A stretch of DNA of 64,000 bases, from assembly GCA_965243345.1 (NCBI GenBank), contig CBDEUR010000003.1, positions 3,987,607 through 4,051,606 of the forward strand, written 5' to 3'. How positions within the stretch are numbered: the stretch's first letter is position 1; every line of letters starts with the position of its first letter. Positions 6,032-60,272 of this stretch are shown here, in pieces. Below the pieces are notes generated by a model. That model saw only the letters and a list, made by a program, of their open reading frames with translations, made no database searches and was not told where the DNA came from. The translations under genes and the position numbers were made by a program. This DNA is from Thalassobaculaceae bacterium. GTDB lineage: Bacteria; Pseudomonadota; Alphaproteobacteria; Thalassobaculales; Thalassobaculaceae.

Positions 6032-7256
6032 TCAGCGACTGGTAGACCAGGACCCTGAGCTCCCGGCGGATCGGGTAGCTCGACGACGGGATCAGCTGGG
6101 TCAGGAACACCACGGTCAGTTCCTCCGCCGGGTCGATCCAGAATGCGGTACTCGCCATCCCGCCCCATGCGAACTCGCCGGGCGAGCCGGGTATCTGGGC
6201 GTGCACCGGATCGAGCAGCACCGCGCCGCCCAGCCCGAAGCCGATGCCGTTCATCGGCATCTCGCTGAAGACCGACTGTCCCATCGAGGCCATGTCACCG
6301 GGCAGGTGGTTCATCTGCATGAACTCGACCGTCTTGCGCCCCAGGATCCGGGCGTCGTCGAGCGTGCCGCCGCGGCGGAGCATCTCGAGGAAGCGGAGGT
6401 AGTCGGCCATCGACGAGACCAGTCCGCCGCCGCCGGAATACAGGCTGACCGGTTCGCGAAACCGGCTGTCCCCGGCGTCCTCCACCAGCTTGAGCGGGTC
6501 CTCCGCGGCCAGGGTGTAGAGCGAGCAGAACCGGTCCAGCCGGTCGTCGGGAACACCGAAGAAGGTGTCCGGCATGCCGAGGGGCTCAAAGATCCGTTCC
6601 CGGAACACCTGGTCCAGCGGGCGCCCGGCGACCACCTCGACGACCCGGCCGAGCACGTCGGTCGACACCCCGTAGTTCCAGCGGGTTCCGGGATGAAAGC
6701 ACAGCGGCACGGCGGCCAGTCGTGCGACCACGCTGGCCAGGCACTCGTCGGTCCCGGAGAAGTCGGCGCGGGCGCGCCGCATCGCCCGTCCGACCGGGGT
6801 CGGATCGAACAGCCCGTAGGTCAGGCCCGAGGTGTGGGTCATCAGCTGGCGCACCGTGACCGGTGTCTCGGCATCGACCAGTTCCATGTTCTCGAACGGT
6901 CCGCCGACGTAGACCTTGCGTTCGGCGAGTTCGGGGAGGATTTCCTCGACCGGCGCATCGAGCATGAGGCGGCCTTCCTCGAACAGCGTCATGGCTGCCA
7001 CCGTGGTCACCGGCTTGGTCATGGAATAGATGCGGTACAAGCCGTCCTGGAGCGCCGGCAGGCGGCGGGCGATGTCACGCTGGCCGTAGAGATCGGCATG
7101 GGCAAGCCTGCCGCGGCGCAGCACCGCGACGGCGGCGAACGGCAGCTTGCCCGCGTCGACGTAGCTGCGCATCCACGGGCCGATGCGGGCGAGCCGGTTC
7201 CTGCACAGGCCGAGTTCCTCGGGTCTGGCAACGGGATCGAGACTGTCGAGGGGCAT
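6024..7256 (-). CDS. serine hydrolase, beta-lactamase/esterase family
   Basis: S-x-x-K motif (YSMTKP) plus class-C beta-lactamase-like flanks. I chose the start at ATG 7256 (MPLDSL...); the ORF stays open to 7301. Confidence 0.8.
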   Translation of the reverse strand: MPLDSLDPVARPEELGLCRNRLARIGPWMRSYVDAGKLPFAAVAVLRRGRLAHADLYGQRDIARRLPALQDGLYRIYSMTKPVTTVAAMTLFEEGRLMLDAPVEEILPELAERKVYVGGPFENMELVDAETPVTVRQLMTHTSGLTYGLFDPTPVGRAMRRARADFSGTDECLASVVARLAAVPLCFHPGTRWNYGVSTDVLGRVVEVVAGRPLDQVFRERIFEPLGMPDTFFGVPDDRLDRFCSLYTLAAEDPLKLVEDAGDSRFREPVSLYSGGGGLVSSMADYLRFLEMLRRGGTLDDARILGRKTVEFMQMNHLPGDMASMGQSVFSEMPMNGIGFGLGGAVLLDPVHAQIPGSPGEFAWGGMASTAFWIDPAEELTVVFLTQLIPSSSYPIRRELRVLVYQSLID

Positions 7257-7331
7257 TGCCGCATCTCCTGGTGAGCGCATGGACCGGCAGTGCCGGGGCA
7301 CTTGCCTTCCGGTTCCGTCCTATGCCACAGC

Positions 7332-7892
7332 ATGCCGATGCGAGGCTATTTCGGAATCGGTGTCGAGGGTATCAGCAAGCCGATGAACTTCGGCGCGGTG
7401 ATGCGAACCGCGCACGCATTCGGCGCCAGTTTCGCGTTCACCGTCGGCGACGCCCTGCCGGCGCGCGAGATCGGACAGTCCGATACCTCGCACGCGGCCG
7501 GCAGCCTGCCGTTCTACGCGTTCCGGCAGGCCTGCGACCTCCTGCTGCCGCGCGGCTGCGCCCTGGTGGGAGTGGAAATCACCGAAGACGCGATCGAACT
7601 GCCGAGTTTCCGCCACCCGCGCCGCGCCGCGTACGTGCTCGGTCCGGAACGCGGCGCACTGTCGCGGGCCATGCTCGCACGCTGCGACCACGTGGTCCGC
7701 ATCCCGCTCGGCTTCGCGATCAACGTCGGGCTTGCCGGAGCCCTGGTCATGTACGACAGGATGATCACGCTGGGGCGGTTCGCGCCGCGGCCGGTCTCCG
7801 CCGGCGGTCCGGTCGAACCGCTGACGGCACCCGAGTTCGGACCGCCGGCCTGGGTGCGCAAGCAGGCTCGCTCCGGGGCCGTGGAGACATGA
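7332..7892 (+). CDS. SpoU/TrmH-family RNA 2'-O-methyltransferase
   Basis: MPMRGYFGIGVEGISKPMNFGAVMRTAHAFGA...LGPERGALS...VRIP is a SpoU methylase signature. Internal ATG of the 7290 ORF. Confidence 0.8.
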   Translation: MPMRGYFGIGVEGISKPMNFGAVMRTAHAFGASFAFTVGDALPAREIGQSDTSHAAGSLPFYAFRQACDLLLPRGCALVGVEITEDAIELPSFRHPRRAAYVLGPERGALSRAMLARCDHVVRIPLGFAINVGLAGALVMYDRMITLGRFAPRPVSAGGPVEPLTAPEFGPPAWVRKQARSGAVET

Positions 7893-8686
7893 ACCCGTTC
7901 GCCGAACTCTTCGCCGCCGAACGAGGAGCGGAGCGGATTGCGCGGCGGCTGGCGCGAAGCGGGCTCTGTTCGCGGCGCGACGCCGAGCGATGGATCGCGG
8001 CCGGACGGGTCAGGGTCGACGGCCGAACGCTCGATCATCCGGCGGTGACGGTCGATGCGTCGAGCCGCATCCTCGTCGACGGCAAGCCGGTTCCCCCGAT
8101 CGAGCGGCCGCGGCTGTGGCGTTACCACAAGCCCGCCGGCCGCATCACCAGCACCAGCGATCCGCAGGGGCGCCGCACCGTCTTTGCCGACCTTCCGGCG
8201 GACCTTCCCCGGGTGATGACGGTCGGCCGGCTCGACCTCGCGTCGGAAGGCCTGCTGCTGCTGACCAATGACGGCGGCCTGGCGCGGTTGCTCGAACTTC
8301 CCTCCACCGGCTGGGTGCGTCGCTACCGGGTCAGGGTGCACGGCCGGCCGGAGCCTGCGCGGCTTGACGCGATCGCGCGCGGGGTCACCATCGAGGGCAT
8401 CACCTACGGACCGGCCGACATCAGCCTCGATCACCAGGGACCGAGCAACGCCTGGCTCACCGTCGGACTGCGCGAGGGCAGGAACCGGGAGGTGCGCCGG
8501 CTGCTGGAGCATGCCGACCTTGCCGTGAACAGGCTGATCCGGATCTCCTACGGTCCGTTCCAGCTGGGGACCCTGCCGGCGGCGGCGGTGAGCGAGGTCA
8601 GGCAGCGGGTCCTTCGCGAACAGCTCGGTGCGGGCAGGCCGCAGGACCGGGATGCGGATCGTCGCCGGAAGCAGGCGCGGCGCTAG
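7889..8686 (+). CDS. pseudouridine synthase, RsuA/RluB family
   Basis: N-terminal S4 domain (RIARRLARSGLCSRRDAERWI), the catalytic VGRLD motif and a basic C-terminal tail. The ATG overlaps the upstream TGA. Confidence 0.85.
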   Translation: MNPFAELFAAERGAERIARRLARSGLCSRRDAERWIAAGRVRVDGRTLDHPAVTVDASSRILVDGKPVPPIERPRLWRYHKPAGRITSTSDPQGRRTVFADLPADLPRVMTVGRLDLASEGLLLLTNDGGLARLLELPSTGWVRRYRVRVHGRPEPARLDAIARGVTIEGITYGPADISLDHQGPSNAWLTVGLREGRNREVRRLLEHADLAVNRLIRISYGPFQLGTLPAAAVSEVRQRVLREQLGAGRPQDRDADRRRKQARR

Positions 8687-9248
8687 ACTGGCGTCGCTTG
8701 CCGGCCGCGGGACGCGGCCGACGGCGTCGCGAACCCGTACGGCGGCGTTCGACCTGCTGGACGGCGGACGGTTCGGCCAGCCCTATTCCGGGCGTCTCGT
8801 GGTGGACGGCTTTGCCGGGACCGGCGCCCTCGGCCTCGAGGCGCTCTCGCGCGGTGCCGCCCATGCGGTGTTCATCGAATCCGAACCGGCGGCGCGGCGC
8901 GTGCTTGCGCGCAACATCCGCAGCCTGGGGTTCGAGGAGCAGGCCACTGTCATTGCAGCGGATGCGACCCGGCTTGGCACCACGGCCGCCGGCGTTGCCG
9001 GGCTGGTGTTGCTCGATCCACCCTACGGCAGCGGCCTTGCAACACCCTGTCTCGCAGCACTGCGCCGCTGCGGCTGGATCGGTGCGGACACCGTCGTCGT
9101 GATCGAGACCGCGCGCCGACACCCGGTTGCATTGCCCGACTGGCTCGAACTGGTCGATGACCGGGCGCACGGAGCCGCCCGGCTGCAGGTCGCCCGGCCG
9201 CTACCCCAGGCTTGCCAGCCAGTCCTCGATCAGCCGGCGCGCGATTGA
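8652..9248 (+). CDS. rsmD: 16S rRNA (guanine966-N2)-methyltransferase
   Basis: MRIVAGSRRGARL start, SAM-binding FAGTGALGLEALSRGA, and the LLDPPY motif. Confidence 0.8.
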   Translation: MRIVAGSRRGARLASLAGRGTRPTASRTRTAAFDLLDGGRFGQPYSGRLVVDGFAGTGALGLEALSRGAAHAVFIESEPAARRVLARNIRSLGFEEQATVIAADATRLGTTAAGVAGLVLLDPPYGSGLATPCLAALRRCGWIGADTVVVIETARRHPVALPDWLELVDDRAHGAARLQVARPLPQACQPVLDQPARD

Positions 9249-10151
9249 ATCGTGCCGCGGCAGGCTGTTGCCGAGCTCGTGGAACCGGCAGAGCTCGTCA
9301 CGGGTGAACCACCGGGCGTCCTCGACCTCGTCGTCGTTGCGCGTAATCCGGGTTGTGCGGGCGCGGGCCTCGAACCCGAGCATGATCGAGGCCGGGAACG
9401 GCCAGGGTTGCGAGGAGTGGTAGCGCACGTCCTCGACCTCGATGTCGGTTTCCTCCCGGACCTCGCGGGCAACCGCTTCTTCCAGGGTCTCGCCCGGCTC
9501 GACGAACCCGGCGAGCGTGGAGTACATGCCGGGCTTCCAGACCCGCTGGCGGCCGAGCAGCGCTCTCTCCCCGTCATGCACCAGCATGATCACTGCCGGG
9601 TCGGTCCGCGGAAAGGTCGATGCGCCGCAGGCCGGGTCGGTGCAGTCGCGCTGGTGTCCGCCCTTGATCGAACGGGTCGGGGCGCCGCACACGCCGCAGT
9701 GACGGTGCCTCTGGTGCCAGTACATGAGCCCGCGGGCGTAGGCGAGCAGGGACCCGTCGAATCGACCGAGCAGCGGACCGACAGCCCGCAGGTCGGCGAA
9801 CTCGCCGTGCCCGGAGAACAGGGTCGAGGACTGCTCCTCGCCGAGACCGGATACGTCGAGCCCGATATGGGCGATGCCGTCCTTCTCACCGAGGAAGACC
9901 GCAACCTCGGCCCGGGCCACCAGGCCGGAGTGCGCGGCGGCCTCGAGCCATGCCGCGCGCAGGTCGCCGCCCGGACCGGCCTGGACCAGCGACCGTGACC
10001 GCCAGACCGGGACAAGCCGGGTACCGGCGCGCCCGAGCAGGGTCTCGAGCCAGTCCTCTCCCTCGCGCAGGTGTGCCGAACGCTCGAGCCCGCCGAACCC
10101 GTAGGCTGCAGGACGCCGCGAAATCAGGTGAAGCGGATAGCCGTCGGACAT
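9201..10151 (-). CDS. nudC: NAD(+) diphosphatase (Nudix)
   Basis: 316 aa. Zinc ribbon CGVCGAPT...C..PAC and Nudix box GFVEPGETLEEAVAREVREET. Confidence 0.85.
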   Translation of the reverse strand: MSDGYPLHLISRRPAAYGFGGLERSAHLREGEDWLETLLGRAGTRLVPVWRSRSLVQAGPGGDLRAAWLEAAAHSGLVARAEVAVFLGEKDGIAHIGLDVSGLGEEQSSTLFSGHGEFADLRAVGPLLGRFDGSLLAYARGLMYWHQRHRHCGVCGAPTRSIKGGHQRDCTDPACGASTFPRTDPAVIMLVHDGERALLGRQRVWKPGMYSTLAGFVEPGETLEEAVAREVREETDIEVEDVRYHSSQPWPFPASIMLGFEARARTTRITRNDDEVEDARWFTRDELCRFHELGNSLPRHDSIARRLIEDWLASLG

Positions 10152-10377
10152 GGCGGCAATGCTACACGCCGGTTCGCTGCCGGCCTAGAGCCACCCGTCC
10201 TCCGGGAACACGGGAAAACCTGGTGCGGGGCACCTGGCAGTGGTGTCTGGAATTTGGTGTACACTGTGCAGGCTCCCGGAACCCGATGGACCGTGTTCCC
10301 GGCGCGAGACCAACTGGACATGGGAGTGGCGGCCCGTGCCTGTTTGTCGCTTCTGCAGGTGACAATAGCGTGTCGAC

Positions 10378-44606: not shown

Positions 44607-45563
44607 ATGGAGCCACTCATCCGGATTGACCGGCTGACCAAGCTGTTCGGGCCGATCGAGGCGGTGCGCGACGTCAGTTTCTCGGTCGACCGGGGCGAGG
44701 TCGTCGGACTTCTCGGGCCCAACGGGGCCGGCAAGTCGACCACGCTGAAACTGCTGGCCGGCTACCTCGTGCCCACCGCGGGGTCGGCCAGCGTGTGCGG
44801 CCACGATGTCGTCGCCAGTCCGCTCGCGGCGCGCCGGAGCCTCGGATACCTTCCCGAGGGGGCGCCGCTCTACGACGAGATGACACCGTCGGGTTTCCTC
44901 GACTTCGTGGCGCGGGTCCGCCGGCTCGACGGCCGGGCGCGGCGCGATGCGGTTGCGGCCGCCGCGCGGCGCCTGCAGCTCGACGGCGTGCTGCACCAGC
45001 CGATCGGCACGCTGTCGAAGGGGTTCAGGCGCCGGGTCGGCCTCGCCCAGGCCATCCTGCTCGATCCCGAGGTCCTGGTACTCGATGAACCCACCGACGG
45101 CCTCGACCCGAACCAGAAACACGAGGTTCGCGCGCTGCTGCGCGAGATGGCGGGCCGCAAGGCGGTGATCGTCTCGACCCACAACCTCGACGAGGTCGAG
45201 GCGGTGTGCTCGCGCGCGGTGGTGATCGCCGCCGGCAGGGTCGTCGCCGACGCCGCGCCCGCCGCGCTGGCGACACGTTCCGCCCGGCACAACGTGTTGT
45301 GCATCAGGGTTGCGCGCGAACATGCCACGAGAGCCATTGACGCGATCGGCACGGTGCCCGGACTGGTTGCCGTCGACAGGCCCGACCCGTCCGGTGACGA
45401 CAGCGAGATCAGGGTCATGGGGGGGGGTGACGCCGATCTCAGGGCGCCACTGCACCGGGCGCTCGTTGACCGGGACGTGGCGGTTCTCGAGTTCTGGCGC
45501 GAGCCCGGCCGCATGGAGGACGTGTTCCGGCAGCTGACGCGCCAGGCGGGAGAGGTGGCGTGA
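44607..45563 (+). CDS. ABC-2-type exporter ATP-binding protein (GldA-like)
   Basis: Walker A GPNGAGKST, LSKGFRRRVGLAQA, LVLDEPTDGLDP. Confidence 0.85.
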   Translation: MEPLIRIDRLTKLFGPIEAVRDVSFSVDRGEVVGLLGPNGAGKSTTLKLLAGYLVPTAGSASVCGHDVVASPLAARRSLGYLPEGAPLYDEMTPSGFLDFVARVRRLDGRARRDAVAAAARRLQLDGVLHQPIGTLSKGFRRRVGLAQAILLDPEVLVLDEPTDGLDPNQKHEVRALLREMAGRKAVIVSTHNLDEVEAVCSRAVVIAAGRVVADAAPAALATRSARHNVLCIRVAREHATRAIDAIGTVPGLVAVDRPDPSGDDSEIRVMGGGDADLRAPLHRALVDRDVAVLEFWREPGRMEDVFRQLTRQAGEVA

Positions 45564-55338: not shown

Positions 55339-56093
55339 CCGACCTGTACGACCTTGCCGGCCGGACCGCGCTGGTGACCGGTGCCTCGCAGGGGCTGGGA
55401 CAGAGATTTGCCCGTGTCCTGGCCCGCCACGGCGCCGGCGTCGGACTGGCGGCGCGCCAGACCGACCGTATCGCGGCCCTGCAGGAGGAAATCGGTGCCG
55501 GTGGCGGCCGCGCCCACGCGGTGACCATGGACGTGATGGACCGCTCCAGTATCGAGGCCGGGGTGAGCGAGGTGGAGAGCGTGCTGGGCCCGGTCGACAT
55601 CCTGGTCAACAATGCCGGCCTTGCGATCAACAGCGCCTTCCTGGACGTGACCGAGGAGGAGTACGACACGGTACTCGGGACCAACCTGAGGGGATGCTTC
55701 TTCTGCGCCCAGGAAGTGGCCCGGGGCATGGCCGAGCGCGGCGAGGGCTCGATCATCAACATCTCCTCGGTGCTGGGTGCGCGGCCGATCGGGACGCTGT
55801 CGACCTACTGTGCGTCGAAGGGGGGGCTGAACCAGCTGACAGCGGCCATGGCGCTCGAGCTGGCGCGCCACGGTGTCCGGGTCAATGCCATCGCGCCGGG
55901 CTACGTCGAAACCCCGATGAACAGCGATTTCTTCCGTTCGCTGCCCGGCCAGGCCCTGGTCCGCTCGGTACCGCAGCGCCGGCTCGGCCAGGTGTCCGAC
56001 CTCGACGGCGCCCTGCTGCTGCTGGCCTCCGGCGCATCGGGGTTCATGACCGGCACGGTGGTGACGGTCGATGGCGGGTTCACCATTCGCTGA
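55314..56093 (+). CDS. SDR family oxidoreductase
   Basis: TGASQGLG, NNAG, and the YCASKGG Y-x3-K motif. An alternative GTG start at 55335 would overlap the upstream stop (GTGA). Confidence 0.85.
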   Translation: MARTETAVTDLYDLAGRTALVTGASQGLGQRFARVLARHGAGVGLAARQTDRIAALQEEIGAGGGRAHAVTMDVMDRSSIEAGVSEVESVLGPVDILVNNAGLAINSAFLDVTEEEYDTVLGTNLRGCFFCAQEVARGMAERGEGSIINISSVLGARPIGTLSTYCASKGGLNQLTAAMALELARHGVRVNAIAPGYVETPMNSDFFRSLPGQALVRSVPQRRLGQVSDLDGALLLLASGASGFMTGTVVTVDGGFTIR

Positions 56094-57026: not shown

Positions 57027-58010
57027 CTACCGCCTGCGCCGCATGCGCTTGGAGAGGTGCCGGGCGGAGGTGCTGCTCATGATGAACTCAGCAACCAGAC
57101 CCACCATGTCCTGGTCCTCCACCGGATAGCGGGTGTCGAAAAGCCGCGGCATGCCCGCGACCTGATCCTCGCCGAACTTGACCTGTGCCATCCGCCACAG
57201 CATCACCCGCTCGGCGGCCGCTTCTTCCATCAGCGCCTTGGCATATCCCTCGCGCTGTCCCTGTTCCCTGCCCTGCCGGTGAACCGGCCGCATCAGTTCG
57301 TCGGCGCGCCGGATGTCCTCCAGGGTGGGTTCCGCCTCGCCGAGGCTGCGTGTCATGTTGAACTCGAAACCGTGCTCCCGGCCGAGCAGGTTTCCCCATT
57401 CGAGGATCGCCTCCACCGCCCGGGCGTGCTCCGGTTCCGGAAGTCGCGACACGCAACCGGCCGGCAGGTTGAGGCCGATCCGGTCCGGCCGAACGGAGGT
57501 CTGTACCGCGATGATGTGGGAGACCACCGAGTCCGGATCGATATCCGTGGTGTCGAGGGCGCGGATGTCGAGGACACGCTGCTCCGCGGCGCGGTGCTGC
57601 GCGGTTGCCGGGGGCCACGGCCTGTCGCCGTCGTAGATCACCAGCTGCACCAGTCGCGGAACCGGCCCGCCTGCATCCGACAGCGCCGCGTGGCAGGCGG
57701 CGAGCCGGTCACTTGCTCCGGTATCGATCTCCGTGTGGATCTCGACCAGGAACAGGACCGTCTGGTCGGGACCATTGCCCCGCATTCCGACGCGCCAGAA
57801 CGCCGAGTGCGGGCAGGCCGGTCCCGGCATGTCTTCCGCGGCCACCGGGCGCAGGCGCTGCCAGTCCAGCCGTTCGCGCAGGTCGGTCCCGTCGTCGCAC
57901 ACGAGGCCCCGGGCATAGCCGGTCACCAGGTGCGTGAAGATGACCGGGTGTTCGAACAGCGCGCGATAGGCGTGCCAGTCGGGGCTGTCGTGCATCGGCA
58001 TCACTGTCAT
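57027..58010 (-). CDS. Rpn-family recombination-promoting nuclease / putative PD-(D/E)XK transposase with a DUF4351-like C-terminus
   Basis: N-terminal HDSPDWHAYRALFEHPVIFTHLV, the core strand LFLVEIHTE, and a C-terminal GREQGQREGYAKAL...MLWRMAQVKFGE. Possible starts are at 58010, 58001 and 57995. Confidence 0.6.
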   Translation of the reverse strand: MTVMPMHDSPDWHAYRALFEHPVIFTHLVTGYARGLVCDDGTDLRERLDWQRLRPVAAEDMPGPACPHSAFWRVGMRGNGPDQTVLFLVEIHTEIDTGASDRLAACHAALSDAGGPVPRLVQLVIYDGDRPWPPATAQHRAAEQRVLDIRALDTTDIDPDSVVSHIIAVQTSVRPDRIGLNLPAGCVSRLPEPEHARAVEAILEWGNLLGREHGFEFNMTRSLGEAEPTLEDIRRADELMRPVHRQGREQGQREGYAKALMEEAAAERVMLWRMAQVKFGEDQVAGMPRLFDTRYPVEDQDMVGLVAEFIMSSTSARHLSKRMRRRR

Positions 58011-58225
58011 CCGGACGGTGCGGAAGGAGGCGGAACATAAAGCGAACCCGGACTGCGGGTCAACAGGCCGGCCACCGCCGTGGTGAAACTTGCACGCCGC
58101 GTTCGGCGAAAGTGTCCCAACGGGCATCCGCGGGACAAAAGCACCCGTTCCGCGCAGGGGCCGCACCTGTCCCTAGCGTTCTAGTCCCGTACTTGCGATG
58201 CGCAAAGTGGAAAAATCCAGCTCGA

Positions 58226-58687
58226 TCAGTCCAGGCACTTCTTTCCTGCAGGGATCTCGCTCCAGCGATCAAGATAGAACGCAAACCTCTCGGCAAACCC
58301 ATCCCCGAATGGATGTACATCTGCCTTTGCAATTGTCTTGGAGAGGTTCAAAAAGTCAATGACGTGAAATTCTTCTATCCCGCAGAACTTGGCTTTTTCT
58401 TCATCATTGAGAGCACACGGCACTATCATGATCAAATCAATGTCGGCGTCACTCCATGCCTCGGCGACTTCGGTTTTATACAATTGTCCTTTCTTTCCCT
58501 TTAGTCCAGGTCGTGGGGCTCTCATATTCATTTTGCGGAAGCCGCACCTGTCGCAAAGGCTTATGCATCCGATTTCGTGAAGTTTCCATATCAAGTGTGC
58601 GTACTTTCGCGATTCCTTACTCGCACGTGCAACTTGAAGAACTCCACAGAGTATCTCGCATATTTTTTTATTCTTTGCACATTTCAT
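58226..58687 (-). CDS. Cys-rich hypothetical protein (153 aa), in the -1 frame relative to the upstream ORF; possibly made only as a frameshift fusion
   Basis: It lies in the AT-rich islet and has 8 Cys (C3, C10, C14, C41, C45, C48 and two more). There is no SD before its ATG, and its frame is open for 16 codons upstream. Confidence 0.5.
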   Translation of the reverse strand: MKCAKNKKICEILCGVLQVARASKESRKYAHLIWKLHEIGCISLCDRCGFRKMNMRAPRPGLKGKKGQLYKTEVAEAWSDADIDLIMIVPCALNDEEKAKFCGIEEFHVIDFLNLSKTIAKADVHPFGDGFAERFAFYLDRWSEIPAGKKCLD

Positions 58688-59004
58688 CGTCTTAATTTGC
58701 TCTTTTTTATCGATTTCTTGTCCGTCTTTAGTTCAAGCAAGCACAAGTGTTTCTTGCTTTTCTTTTCAAAAAACACGGCAAAGTCAACATTTGTGGATTG
58801 GTCATTTCCCGAAGGATTAAACAATTTCTTGTGCAAAGGAAATTCGGGAATCACCTTACAATTTTCGGGACGCACCCCAAACTTCGCTCCGACAACAGTC
58901 GGTAACAGCATGCCGAATAAAACGTCAACCCGTCTCTCTAGTTGGTATGCGGGGAGATGCCGCCAGTCGTCAAGCTGACCTAAAATCCTCGATAGTATGT
59001 CCAT
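58684..59004 (-). CDS. mini PD-(D/E)XK nuclease-like protein (106 aa)
   Basis: Strong SD AGGAG (59012-59016) lies 7 nt before the ATG. Motif set: E23 (YQLERR), D74 (VDFAVFF), E91-L-K93 (CLLELK). AT-rich codon usage, foreign to this genome. Confidence 0.6.
   Translation of the reverse strand: MDILSRILGQLDDWRHLPAYQLERRVDVLFGMLLPTVVGAKFGVRPENCKVIPEFPLHKKLFNPSGNDQSTNVDFAVFFEKKSKKHLCLLELKTDKKSIKKSKLRR
58702..58708 (-). other. A_AAA_AAG -1 slippery heptamer in the zero frame of the 106-aa ORF
   Basis: The coding strand reads ATA AAA AAG AGC. A -1 slip continues as GAG CAA ATT AAG ACG ATG..., which is the frame of the 153-aa ORF. Confidence 0.55.
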
Positions 59005-59243
59005 TTTCTGGCTCCTACATTTCTTGTCACTATTCGAGAACCAGTGGTCCGATGGCTACACTGATCTCCGCAGCAAGCCAGCGCAAGTCCCTCTTGTCCG
59101 GGCAATCACCGACCACGGCCGGAAAGCCACCAGTCATCCGGAACAGACACCGTTCAGGGGGCAGTTACGGCGCCTTTGCCTGCCGACAAACTGTCCCGCA
59201 TCTGAACAACCCGGCCGGAACACCACGAGCTGCTGCTACCCGT

Positions 59244-60272
59244 TCATCGACCGTTTGCCAATTCTGGGGCAGCGTCGGGCAGTCCCGGACGCCTTGCGGA
59301 TCCGTCATCGCGGCTGCCGGGAAACCGGGCCCCGAACCGGGTGATGATCTCTCCGGCCGCGGCACTGGCAATCTCTCCGCAGCGGCCGAGCCGTTCACCG
59401 TTGACCAGTCCGAACAGGAAGCCGGCCGCGTATATGTCCCCGGCTCCGGTGGAATCGACCACGGGACCGGCGGGCAGCGCAGGGACCTGGTGGCGTTCAC
59501 CCGGTCCGATCACTACCGATCCGTGTGCGCCCCTGGTCACCGCCAGGAGATCGCAGTCGCCGACGACGGCCGCGATCGCGTTCTCGAGGTCATCAACCCG
59601 GCAGAGCGCGCGAAGTTCGTCCTCGTTGCAGAACAGGATGTCGACGTGGTCCGCGAGGAGGCGGAGAATGTCGTCCCGGTGCCGCTCGACGCAGTATGGG
59701 TCCGACAGCGTCAACGCGACACGGGTACCGGCCTCCCTTGCCACCGCCGCGGCGGCCTTCAGGGCCTGGCGTCCGCCCGGAGGGTCCCAGAGGTAGCCCT
59801 CCAGGTAGATGACGGCGCTGTCGGCAATGAGAACCGGGTCAATGTCTGCGGCATCAAGTTCGGTACACGCGCCGAGGTAGGTGTTCATGGACCGCTGGGC
59901 ATCGGGCGTCACCAGGACCATGCAGCAGGCCGAATCCAGTCCGGCCGTTGACGGCGGCGTCTCGTACCGGACCCCGACCCGGGCGATGTCGGCACGGAAC
60001 ACGCTGCCCAGGTGATCGTTGCGGACCTTGCCGACGAACGCCGCGCGTCCGCCCATGGCGGCGAGGCCGGTGGCGGTATTGGCCGCCGACCCTCCGGACA
60101 CCTCGAGCCCCGGTCCCAGTAGCCGGTAGAGTTCCCGGGCGCGGTCGGCATCGATGAGCTGCATGGCTCCCTTGGTGATCGAATGCTCCTGAAGGAATGC
60201 ATCGTCGACCCGCGAGACCACGTCGACGATCGCGTTGCCGATGCAGGTGACATCGATGGTGCGTGTCCGCAT
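59244..60272 (-). CDS. PfkB-family carbohydrate kinase (adenosine kinase-like)
   Basis: CIGNAIVDV..., GGSAANTA, and the C-terminal TGAGDIYAAGFLFG. I chose the start at MRTRTIDV; the ORF stays open to 60512. Confidence 0.8.
   Translation of the reverse strand: MRTRTIDVTCIGNAIVDVVSRVDDAFLQEHSITKGAMQLIDADRARELYRLLGPGLEVSGGSAANTATGLAAMGGRAAFVGKVRNDHLGSVFRADIARVGVRYETPPSTAGLDSACCMVLVTPDAQRSMNTYLGACTELDAADIDPVLIADSAVIYLEGYLWDPPGGRQALKAAAAVAREAGTRVALTLSDPYCVERHRDDILRLLADHVDILFCNEDELRALCRVDDLENAIAAVVGDCDLLAVTRGAHGSVVIGPGERHQVPALPAGPVVDSTGAGDIYAAGFLFGLVNGERLGRCGEIASAAAGEIITRFGARFPGSRDDGSARRPGLPDAAPELANGR

Follow-up and report, generated by a model that had tools for sequence, protein, structure and literature searches.

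We analysed a 64,000-nucleotide stretch of contig CBDEUR010000003.1 from a Thalassobaculaceae bacterium (hereafter, the window), in which an AT-rich islet between a pfkB-family kinase gene and a hypothetical gene carries two overlapping open reading frames (ORFs) on the minus strand. The two ORFs are halves of one gene (58226..59004, minus strand). From sequence comparison and structural modelling, we read this gene with reasonable confidence as encoding a stand-alone nuclease of about 259 aa, with the PD-(D/E)XK fold and of an undescribed family that we label FAM, which was broken by the loss of one nucleotide and now lies as an orphan at a strain-variable hotspot. The initial annotation of this stretch had instead described a cassette of two genes, a mini PD-(D/E)XK nuclease and a Cys-rich partner. 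In the following, L-numbers denote the compared loci or genomes and P-numbers the homologous proteins.

Two open reading frames of one predicted nuclease gene

The N-terminal fragment, ORF1 (58684..59004, minus strand, 106 aa), and the C-terminal fragment, ORF2 (58226..58687, minus strand, 153 aa), overlap by ATGA. The overlap had been noted in the initial annotation, but its count of exactly two genes did not hold. The joined 259-aa translation matched 947 proteins, mostly single ORFs of 250-270 aa and most of them at 94-100% coverage, the closest being 55-60% identical. Alignments of these homologues ran colinear through the ORF junction, without a gap there. At the DNA level, comparison with two intact alleles (L001 and L003) revealed a single-base gap in the window, which was located inside an A-run. 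This site, A_AAA_AAG on the minus strand (58702..58708, with a T6 run at 58703-58708 on the plus strand), has one base fewer than the homologues. The minus-strand frame of the window reads TCG ATA AAA AAG AGC AAA TTA AGA CGA TGA (S I K K S K L R R stop), and one frame back it reads AAA AAA GAG CAA ATT AAG ACG ATG AAA (K K E Q I K T M K). The EQIKTM of the −1 frame fits the family motif EQIxxM (consensus S-I-x-x-x-Q-L-x-x-M) and restores Q103 and M107, which are invariant and nearly invariant, respectively, in an alignment of 78 family sequences. Residues 1-101 of ORF1 are authentic and its last five (SKLRR) are out of frame. ORF1 holds helix alpha-1, strands beta-1 to beta-3 and all the catalytic residues, with the other helices and strands of that one domain encoded by ORF2. 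ORF2 "starts" at the nearly invariant internal Met107 of the family because this is the first start codon in its frame. The simplest history is that ATA AAA AAA GAG, with seven A residues (A7), lost one A to become ATA AAA AAG AG.

The AlphaFold2 model of the repaired 259-aa protein, built from the 78-sequence alignment, is one compact domain (predicted local distance difference test score, pLDDT, 93.1; predicted template modelling score, pTM, 0.90). Its elements are a helix at residues 19-42, strands at 50-58, 70-81 and 84-92, a helix at 101-111, further helices, and strands at 188-195 and 214-217. The resulting order, alpha-beta-beta-beta-alpha-beta, corresponds to the PD-(D/E)XK core with a C-terminal extension, so the structure prediction that the initial annotation had proposed for the fused sequence returned a core order of the anticipated type. 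The motif set that it had read (E23, D74 and E91-L-K93) was also present: E23 in alpha-1, D74 in beta-2 and K93 in beta-3 were invariant among the 78 sequences, and E91 in beta-3 was nearly so. By the alignment and the model, the helix Glu E23 is encoded at 58936-58938 and the catalytic core at 58726..58785 (D74, 58783-58785; E91, 58732-58734; K93, 58726-58728), all on the minus strand. Further invariant residues were W14, P18, Y20, D27, P53, E54, P56, Q103, K134, Y135, L138 and L142. The ORF split falls directly after strand beta-3 of the model and cuts the domain there, so neither fragment would form a complete fold. As judged from the motifs and the model, the gene has a PD-(D/E)XK-type core with conserved catalytic residues, in its N-terminal part as first proposed, and its product of about 259 aa would be one single-domain, Mg2+-dependent nuclease, the activity being that expected for the family.

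The islet and its locus in sister genomes

The islet that carries the broken gene stood out in base composition. A GC profile in 200-nt windows gave 0.37-0.48 across ~58200-59050 versus 0.64-0.72 on either side, which bore out the sharp drop reported in the initial annotation; GC is 0.448 for the nuclease gene and 0.672 for the entire 64-kb window. The existence of an AT-rich islet was therefore upheld, and its limits, first placed at 58170-59110, were corrected to about 58182-59163 by comparison with the sister genome L086. The strain-variable islet (58182..59163, no strand) is defined by its lack of a counterpart in L086 (blastn), by the GC profile and by the junction alignments. Within it, the cassette common to the window and the L001 allele (58218..59086, minus strand, blastn) consists of the gene with 82 bp upstream and 8 bp downstream. 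The Shine-Dalgarno (SD) sequence AGGAG (59012..59016, minus strand), 7 nt before the ATG (59002-59004), is included in this common stretch, and reading of the sequence confirmed the motif and spacer claimed for the first ORF.

Comparisons among sister genomes showed flanks of 90-93% nucleotide identity and differences between the PfkB gene and the hypothetical gene. The common flanks contained DapB, HhH-GPD, bactofilin, EI24 and PfkB on one side and the hypothetical gene, a hydrolase, an SDR and an acyl-CoA ligase on the other. In L001, this position is occupied by a 4.16-kb AT-rich island with an intact allele, 60% identical in protein. The window cassette aligned to L001 7342-8211 at 68.7% identity over 876 columns (blastn), against 92-93% in the flanks. 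The remainder of the L001 island (6193-7341 and 8212-10350) is about 3.3 kb of extra AT-rich DNA with only short ORFs (94-179 aa). L086, which is without a FAM copy, carries 405 bp of unrelated, GC-normal filler, and blastn aligned its flanks to the window at 90-91%, the matches breaking off at 59164 and resuming at 58181. A 310-bp piece of the L001 island (8895-9204) is 67% identical to this filler. L087 has a different left side at the locus. Searches with Pfam assigned no family to the extra ORFs of the L001 island or to the L086 and L087 fillers. In another clade, 21 short-read contigs from many samples (including L088-L097) all break off some 0.9-1.2 kb upstream of the hypothetical gene, in different sequence, and this common endpoint reveals either a repeat or a breakpoint that varies between strains at the islet hotspot. 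The varied content of the sister genomes indicates that the locus is a long-standing variable hotspot rather than the site of a unique recent insertion. The proposal of a recently acquired element thus stood as regards foreign DNA and fell as regards age, the hotspot being old and strain-variable with a 60%-identical allele in L001. The comparison of junctions between sister strains, which had also been suggested, defined the insertion boundaries (~58182-59163) and yielded no target-site duplication; no repeats and no recognisable common target sequence appeared in the islet junction alignments.

Signatures of a mobile element were sparse. Around the islet, terminal repeats, a target-site duplication, transfer RNA genes, promoters and terminators were searched for and none was found above chance, the repeats being 10-14 nt long. 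The 9/10 inverted decamer mentioned in the initial annotation is present and is one of five equally weak inverted pairs, so it is at chance level, as had been stated. The ORF list and Pfam gave no transposase or integrase among the window ORFs, so nothing qualifies the islet as an insertion sequence or transposon, and no methyltransferase lies beside it, its neighbours being the pfkB kinase, EI24, bactofilin, the hypothetical gene, an alpha/beta hydrolase and an SDR. The absence of an adjacent methyltransferase, integrase or transposase, already noted from the letters, was confirmed by the window ORFs together with the Pfam labels of the syntenic L001 genes. Nor does the islet qualify as a type II restriction-modification system, as no cognate DNA methyltransferase gene is adjacent.

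Both genes that border the islet are conserved flanks. The pfkB-family kinase (adenosine-kinase-like; 59244..60272, minus strand) matched Pfam PfkB at E=1.1e-47 and is syntenic in L001 and L086. The other (57027..58010, minus strand) encodes a lineage-restricted hypothetical protein of 324-327 aa, whose homologues fall in three clusters only, with identities of 86% or more and the name hypothetical throughout. It had been called an Rpn-family nuclease, an assignment that we could not sustain: no Pfam or NCBIfam model matched at E<=1, including those of the PF04754 or TIGR01784 type, and there was no significant fold match (AlphaFold2 model poor, pLDDT 56.8; best Foldseek E=0.11). With low confidence, the better-modelled N-terminal part (residues 40-150) showed the order helix-strand-strand-strand-helix-strand, which is nuclease-like.

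The FAM family and its genomic neighbours

An exhaustive profile search returned 1,611 clusters at 50% identity with E<=1e-3, of which 539 had E<=1e-30, and the best 150 clusters were mostly stand-alone proteins of 210-290 aa. The 80 FAM loci in species-representative genomes were spread over Alpha- and Gammaproteobacteria, Myxococcota, Chloroflexota, Bacteroidota, Planctomycetota and others, and their carriers were mostly uncultured metagenome-assembled genomes, the isolates among them being Ornatilinea apprima P3M-1 and Segetibacter aerophilus NBRC 106135. Some record names may point to genome projects on sponge- or coral-associated microbes. Two or three FAM copies occur in several of the genomes. 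Of 71 loci, 56 had a FAM gene that was richer in AT than the sequence around it, with a mean difference of 7.9 points. The C-terminal half of FAM has a mean pairwise identity of 34.5%, versus 54% for the nuclease core, and the nucleotide homology between L084 and L007 ends within this half.

No curated family claims the window protein, in agreement with the statement in the initial annotation that it could not be assigned to a described one. In Pfam, SduA_C (PF14082) scored 15 bits, below the cut-off of 27; NCBIfam gave no match; and PADLOC gave a marginal match to PDC-M47B (E ~0.007; marginal matches to this model were at E ~0.002-0.007), which we rejected as a family assignment, as we did a marginal PHROG match to Holliday-junction resolvase (6.5e-4). 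Membership in Shedu (SduA, DUF4263) was likewise rejected, since PF14082 stays below its cut-off and the PADLOC SduA model matched only 2 of the 78 members, at E>=0.02. The sub-threshold Pfam matches found in more than two of the 78 members were all of PD-(D/E)XK type: SduA_C (15 members), HSDR_N_2 (12), VRR_NUC (11), TnsA (6) and Mrr_cat (3). The top Foldseek matches were mostly PD-(D/E)XK nucleases as well (the R2 endonuclease domain, Card1/Can2/Cdn1, PfoI, MspJI, AF1548, Bse634I, BamHI, and Cas4-like and UL24-like viral proteins). The name of FAM relatives at NCBI is 'hypothetical protein'. Topology, motifs and these consistent weak matches support assignment to the PD-(D/E)XK fold class, as far as comparison and modelling reach, and support no named family.

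The likeness to the PD-(D/E)XK superfamily, such as the nuclease domain of Shedu SduA, Mrr-type enzymes and the nuclease domains of Card1/Can2 and MspJI, lies in the core order, in the helix Glu, the beta-2 Asp and the E-x-K on beta-3, and in a conserved Gln after the E-x-K. With stand-alone defence nucleases of this fold, FAM further shares its occurrence in defence islands and weak but consistent profile and fold matches. However, FAM differs from these proteins in an N-terminal signature of its own, WRHLPAYQLERRVD, and a PEFP strand, in being a lone domain of about 260 aa without a sensor, helicase or DNA-modification-reading domain, and in reaching no curated threshold, the best solved structure giving a template modelling (TM) score of about 0.3. 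FAM is thus an undescribed PD-(D/E)XK family without a curated model or a solved relative. The initial annotation had foreseen that its two ORFs could prove to be a fragment of a well-known, ordinarily single-ORF family; in substance this is what was found, except that the family is not a well-known one.

Gene-context analysis further placed the relatives in defence or mobile contexts, which supports the defence-type setting that had been proposed. The immediate neighbours of FAM included DUF2779 (9 of 84), WYL/WCX regulators (7), tyrosine recombinases (3) and GmrSD (2), besides an MmeI-type IIG enzyme and several PADLOC candidates, and one relative is surrounded by TIR, Eco57I-type and DEAD/MZB helicase genes. 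DUF2779 was detected near FAM in 17 loci of three phyla (tblastn), and, three alphaproteobacterial loci apart, most of the nearest relatives of the window protein have it close by. DUF2779 (PF11074) is an uncharacterised protein described as a Cas4-like nuclease fused to a DEDDh, MrfB-like exonuclease (PMC13621843, PMC3985635). This "solo Cas4" resembles FAM in that it, too, is a nuclease with a PD-(D/E)XK domain that has yet to be characterised; no gene was found beside FAM more often, and the two move together, but DUF2779 differs in its length (~490-560 aa), its two domains and its host-like GC, and no homology to FAM was detectable here. The nine DUF2779 neighbours were all without a PADLOC match.

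The arrangement of the module varied among loci. In L098, whose protein is 57% identical, DUF2779 and WYL lie on one strand, with a NERD-UvrD helicase followed by FAM, a double-AAA ATPase and three tandem recombinases; the order in L084 is AAA, WYL, FAM, DUF2779. The three tandem tyrosine recombinase genes of L098 (9368-12550) are of the recombinase-in-trio type and lie beside the AAA-FAM-helicase-WYL-DUF2779 cluster. A 2.2-kb FAM-DUF2779 segment is 95% identical between L015 (7954-10180) and L043 (6687-8907), and the surrounding 8 kb share nothing else, so the pair moves as a unit. An apparent "hyper-divergence" of FAM between these two loci was an artefact of comparing paralogues, the orthologous segment being the 95% identical one. 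L043 has a second FAM copy, 48% identical, on the other side of DUF2779. L026 (5145-10312) carries WYL, FAM, a 284-aa truncated copy of DUF2779, FAM and DUF2779 in tandem, which suggests a duplication of the module, and a third copy (L031) lies on the same chromosome (OY282455.1). In WYL-FAM-DUF2779 operons, only FAM is AT-rich (GC 0.42-0.53; GC at third codon positions, GC3, 0.45-0.60), in contrast to the host-like adjacent DUF2779 gene (GC 0.61-0.67, GC3 0.70-0.81); examples are L084 8001-8765, L009 7953-8762 and L020 7932-8669, among others. This contrast could arise if FAM is often replaced, or if AT-rich sequence is favoured by selection. Taken together, these loci show a mobile family with links to DUF2779 and WYL. 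The window has neither a DUF2779 nor a WYL gene nor the accompanying AAA ATPase, and the islet copy is solitary.

Origin of the frameshift and role of the family

The 1-nt deletion is probably real and not an assembly error. All the syntenic flanking genes compared with L001 and L086 were full length. Longer homopolymers in the window, G9 (45419-45427, the Gly run of an ABC ATPase ORF at 44607..45563) and G7 (55820-55826, within the SDR gene), lie in uninterrupted ORFs, although such a homopolymer census is a weak gauge of assembly error, because high-GC DNA is open in many frames. Other FAM members (P0021, P0079, P0114, P0051, P0127, P0143 and P0148) are truncated or frameshifted at scattered positions, and these scattered breaks across the family look like ordinary decay. 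P0201 (128 aa) is frameshifted just after the Q-L-E of the same helix (~residue 105), near the break of the window gene; we take this proximity for a coincidence, as the other truncated members break elsewhere. Because both halves are still open in AT-rich DNA and every invariant residue is kept, the break, if real, is recent. The window copy is probably inactive, and most likely a recently inactivated orphan.

Three other accounts of the split were weighed against this loss of one base. If the gene were intact (A7) in the organism, the missing base would be a homopolymer error of sequencing or assembly. The openness of both halves with all invariant residues kept would fit such an artefact, as would the names of related contigs, which are typical of low-coverage long-read metagenome assemblies (e.g. 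'ctg..._3x_l'); the intact G9 and G7 runs, the full-length flanking genes and the independent frameshifts of other members speak against it, and we rate it as an unlikely account, yet one to be taken seriously. Programmed or leaky −1 ribosomal frameshifting would give the 106-aa product plus some full-length nuclease, by which a toxic enzyme could be kept low. The window A_AAA_AAG is a classic −1 slippery heptamer in phase with the ORF1 frame, and it resembles dnaX and IS3/IS911 orfAB in that two overlapping frames meet at such a heptamer and a −1 shift yields the full-length protein, here one of exactly the family length from a gene undamaged otherwise. However, the in-phase heptamer is no independent evidence for a programmed shift, because it arises automatically when one A is deleted from A7. 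The site differs from those systems in that it is not conserved in homologues, which are single ORFs, the intact alleles reading ATC AGC GGA AAG and ATC AGC GTA CCG without an A-run, and in that stimulators are missing: RNA folding of 58630-58720 gave no stimulatory structure (minimum free energy −6.9 kcal/mol, z=+1.0, 172 of 200 shuffles folding as well), and no GGAG or SD-like element was read upstream of the slippery site. Set beside dnaX and IS3/IS911 orfAB, and with the breakpoints of other truncated members scattered, the site is most simply a 1-nt deletion, and slippage appears highly improbable. The genuine two-gene cassette of the initial annotation, with a Cys-rich metal-binding partner in, for example, an ATGA-coupled toxin module, is largely refuted and has next to no chance. 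The ATGA overlap could permit termination-reinitiation and a strong SD precedes ORF1, but a conserved two-ORF version was sought among the homologous loci and none was found, the shorter homologues being truncated at scattered positions. The pair thus did not emerge from the homologue searches as a co-occurring unit; the homologues are mostly single ORFs of about 260 aa spanning the whole joined sequence, the split cuts a single predicted domain, and Q103 is lost in the split form. ORF2 has nine Cys residues, not the eight first counted as suggesting metal binding; only C147 is conserved (65 of 78 homologues), the others occur in 1-11 of 78, and no conserved Cys/His cluster was found. That ORF2 begins at a conserved internal Met is a coincidence of frame.

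Returning to a single nuclease gene broken by the loss of one base, several observations weigh against it. The gap falls exactly in a homopolymer, and a second copy of the window allele was not found by exact look-ups of the ORF2 and pfkB proteins or by scans of metagenome DNA for the A-run and pfkB 3' patterns, so an assembly error, although unlikely, is conceivable. Some full-length protein could still arise, given a heptamer in the correct phase. Across the 78 members, the best Pfam E-value was 0.0047 and all matches were below gathering scores, a sequence-profile search of the PDB gave no matches, and the best Foldseek matches (E=0.028 against PDB and 0.004 against BFVD, TM up to 0.35) were below significance. 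Searches of phage and plasmid collections (tblastn) and a scan of IMG/VR found no FAM relative, and the alphaproteobacterial copies L001, L003 and L005, like the window copy, are without DUF2779. Nuclease activity and a defence role are what we infer for FAM.

As to what the family does, two further explanations compete with a defence role. FAM could be a free-standing selfish gene of the homing-endonuclease kind, which would cut an empty intergenic site, be copied in by repair and then decay. It shares with phage T4 seg and mob a single nuclease gene alone between conserved genes, presence or absence in relatives, atypical composition and a cycle of decay. The islet is minimal (the gene and about 80 bp, without an integrase, terminal repeats or a target-site duplication), L086, with flanks at 90-91%, is without the gene at the same site, the GC trough is gene-sized even inside operons, decayed copies are frequent, and more than one copy is present in some genomes (two in L043; L026 and L031 share a chromosome). 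However, the alleles at this site have diverged to 60% protein and 69% DNA identity, where recent homing would leave near-identical copies, and the closest relatives, unlike seg and mob, usually travel as FAM-DUF2779 modules with regulators. With no recognisable common target sequence found at the junctions, we find homing improbable. Alternatively, FAM, DUF2779, the UvrD/NERD helicase and a PafBC-like WYL regulator could excise damaged DNA and so serve repair instead of defence, which we judge unlikely, although less so than homing. DNA-damage regulons are also among those that WYL regulators control. In L098 and L099, the gene directly upstream of FAM encodes a NERD-UvrD helicase, and 17 of the 78 members have weak PHROG matches to 'Holliday junction resolvase'. 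The C-terminal domain of DUF2779 resembles the mitomycin-repair exonuclease MrfB (PMC13621843). Against repair stand the patchy distribution and AT-rich composition of FAM, its adjacency to integrases, type IIG restriction-modification, GmrSD, TIR and other defence genes, the occurrence of the FAM-DUF2779 module in unrelated contexts, and frequent pseudogenisation, which fits accessory defence genes better.

For the preferred reading, the course of events would be as follows. One A was presumably lost from the A7 run, so that translation would stop after 106 residues, just past beta-3, and the rest of the domain would be stranded in the −1 frame. The gene would thereby have become an orphan at an intergenic hotspot between the pfkB kinase and the hypothetical gene, at which related strains appear to carry other foreign DNA or none. 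Intact FAM members may cut DNA in an Mg2+-dependent manner as effectors of mobile defence-type modules, and may often act with the neighbouring DUF2779 nuclease, which could process DNA ends. The WYL regulator may provide control, and the fast-evolving C-terminal half of FAM may give target or partner specificity. A broader and more tentative proposal, which we regard as possible but rather more doubtful than not, is that FAM and DUF2779 form an undescribed mobile two-nuclease defence module, often with WYL/WCX and a double-AAA ATPase or NERD-UvrD helicase. FAM would be the often-exchanged AT-rich part of this module, its hypervariable C-terminal half would set specificity, and the window copy would be an orphan, perhaps kept very low by slippage at A_AAA_AAG.

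What looked like a nuclease cassette of two genes is thus a single broken one, and further work on it as a pair of toxin and partner would be misplaced. Of broader value is the family to which the locus led, which is widespread, stand-alone, unnamed and AT-richer than its hosts, and which recurs beside DUF2779 and WYL. If the module is indeed a defence or repair system, it would provide a functional context for DUF2779 and add one more nuclease-based system, which would be an incremental advance.

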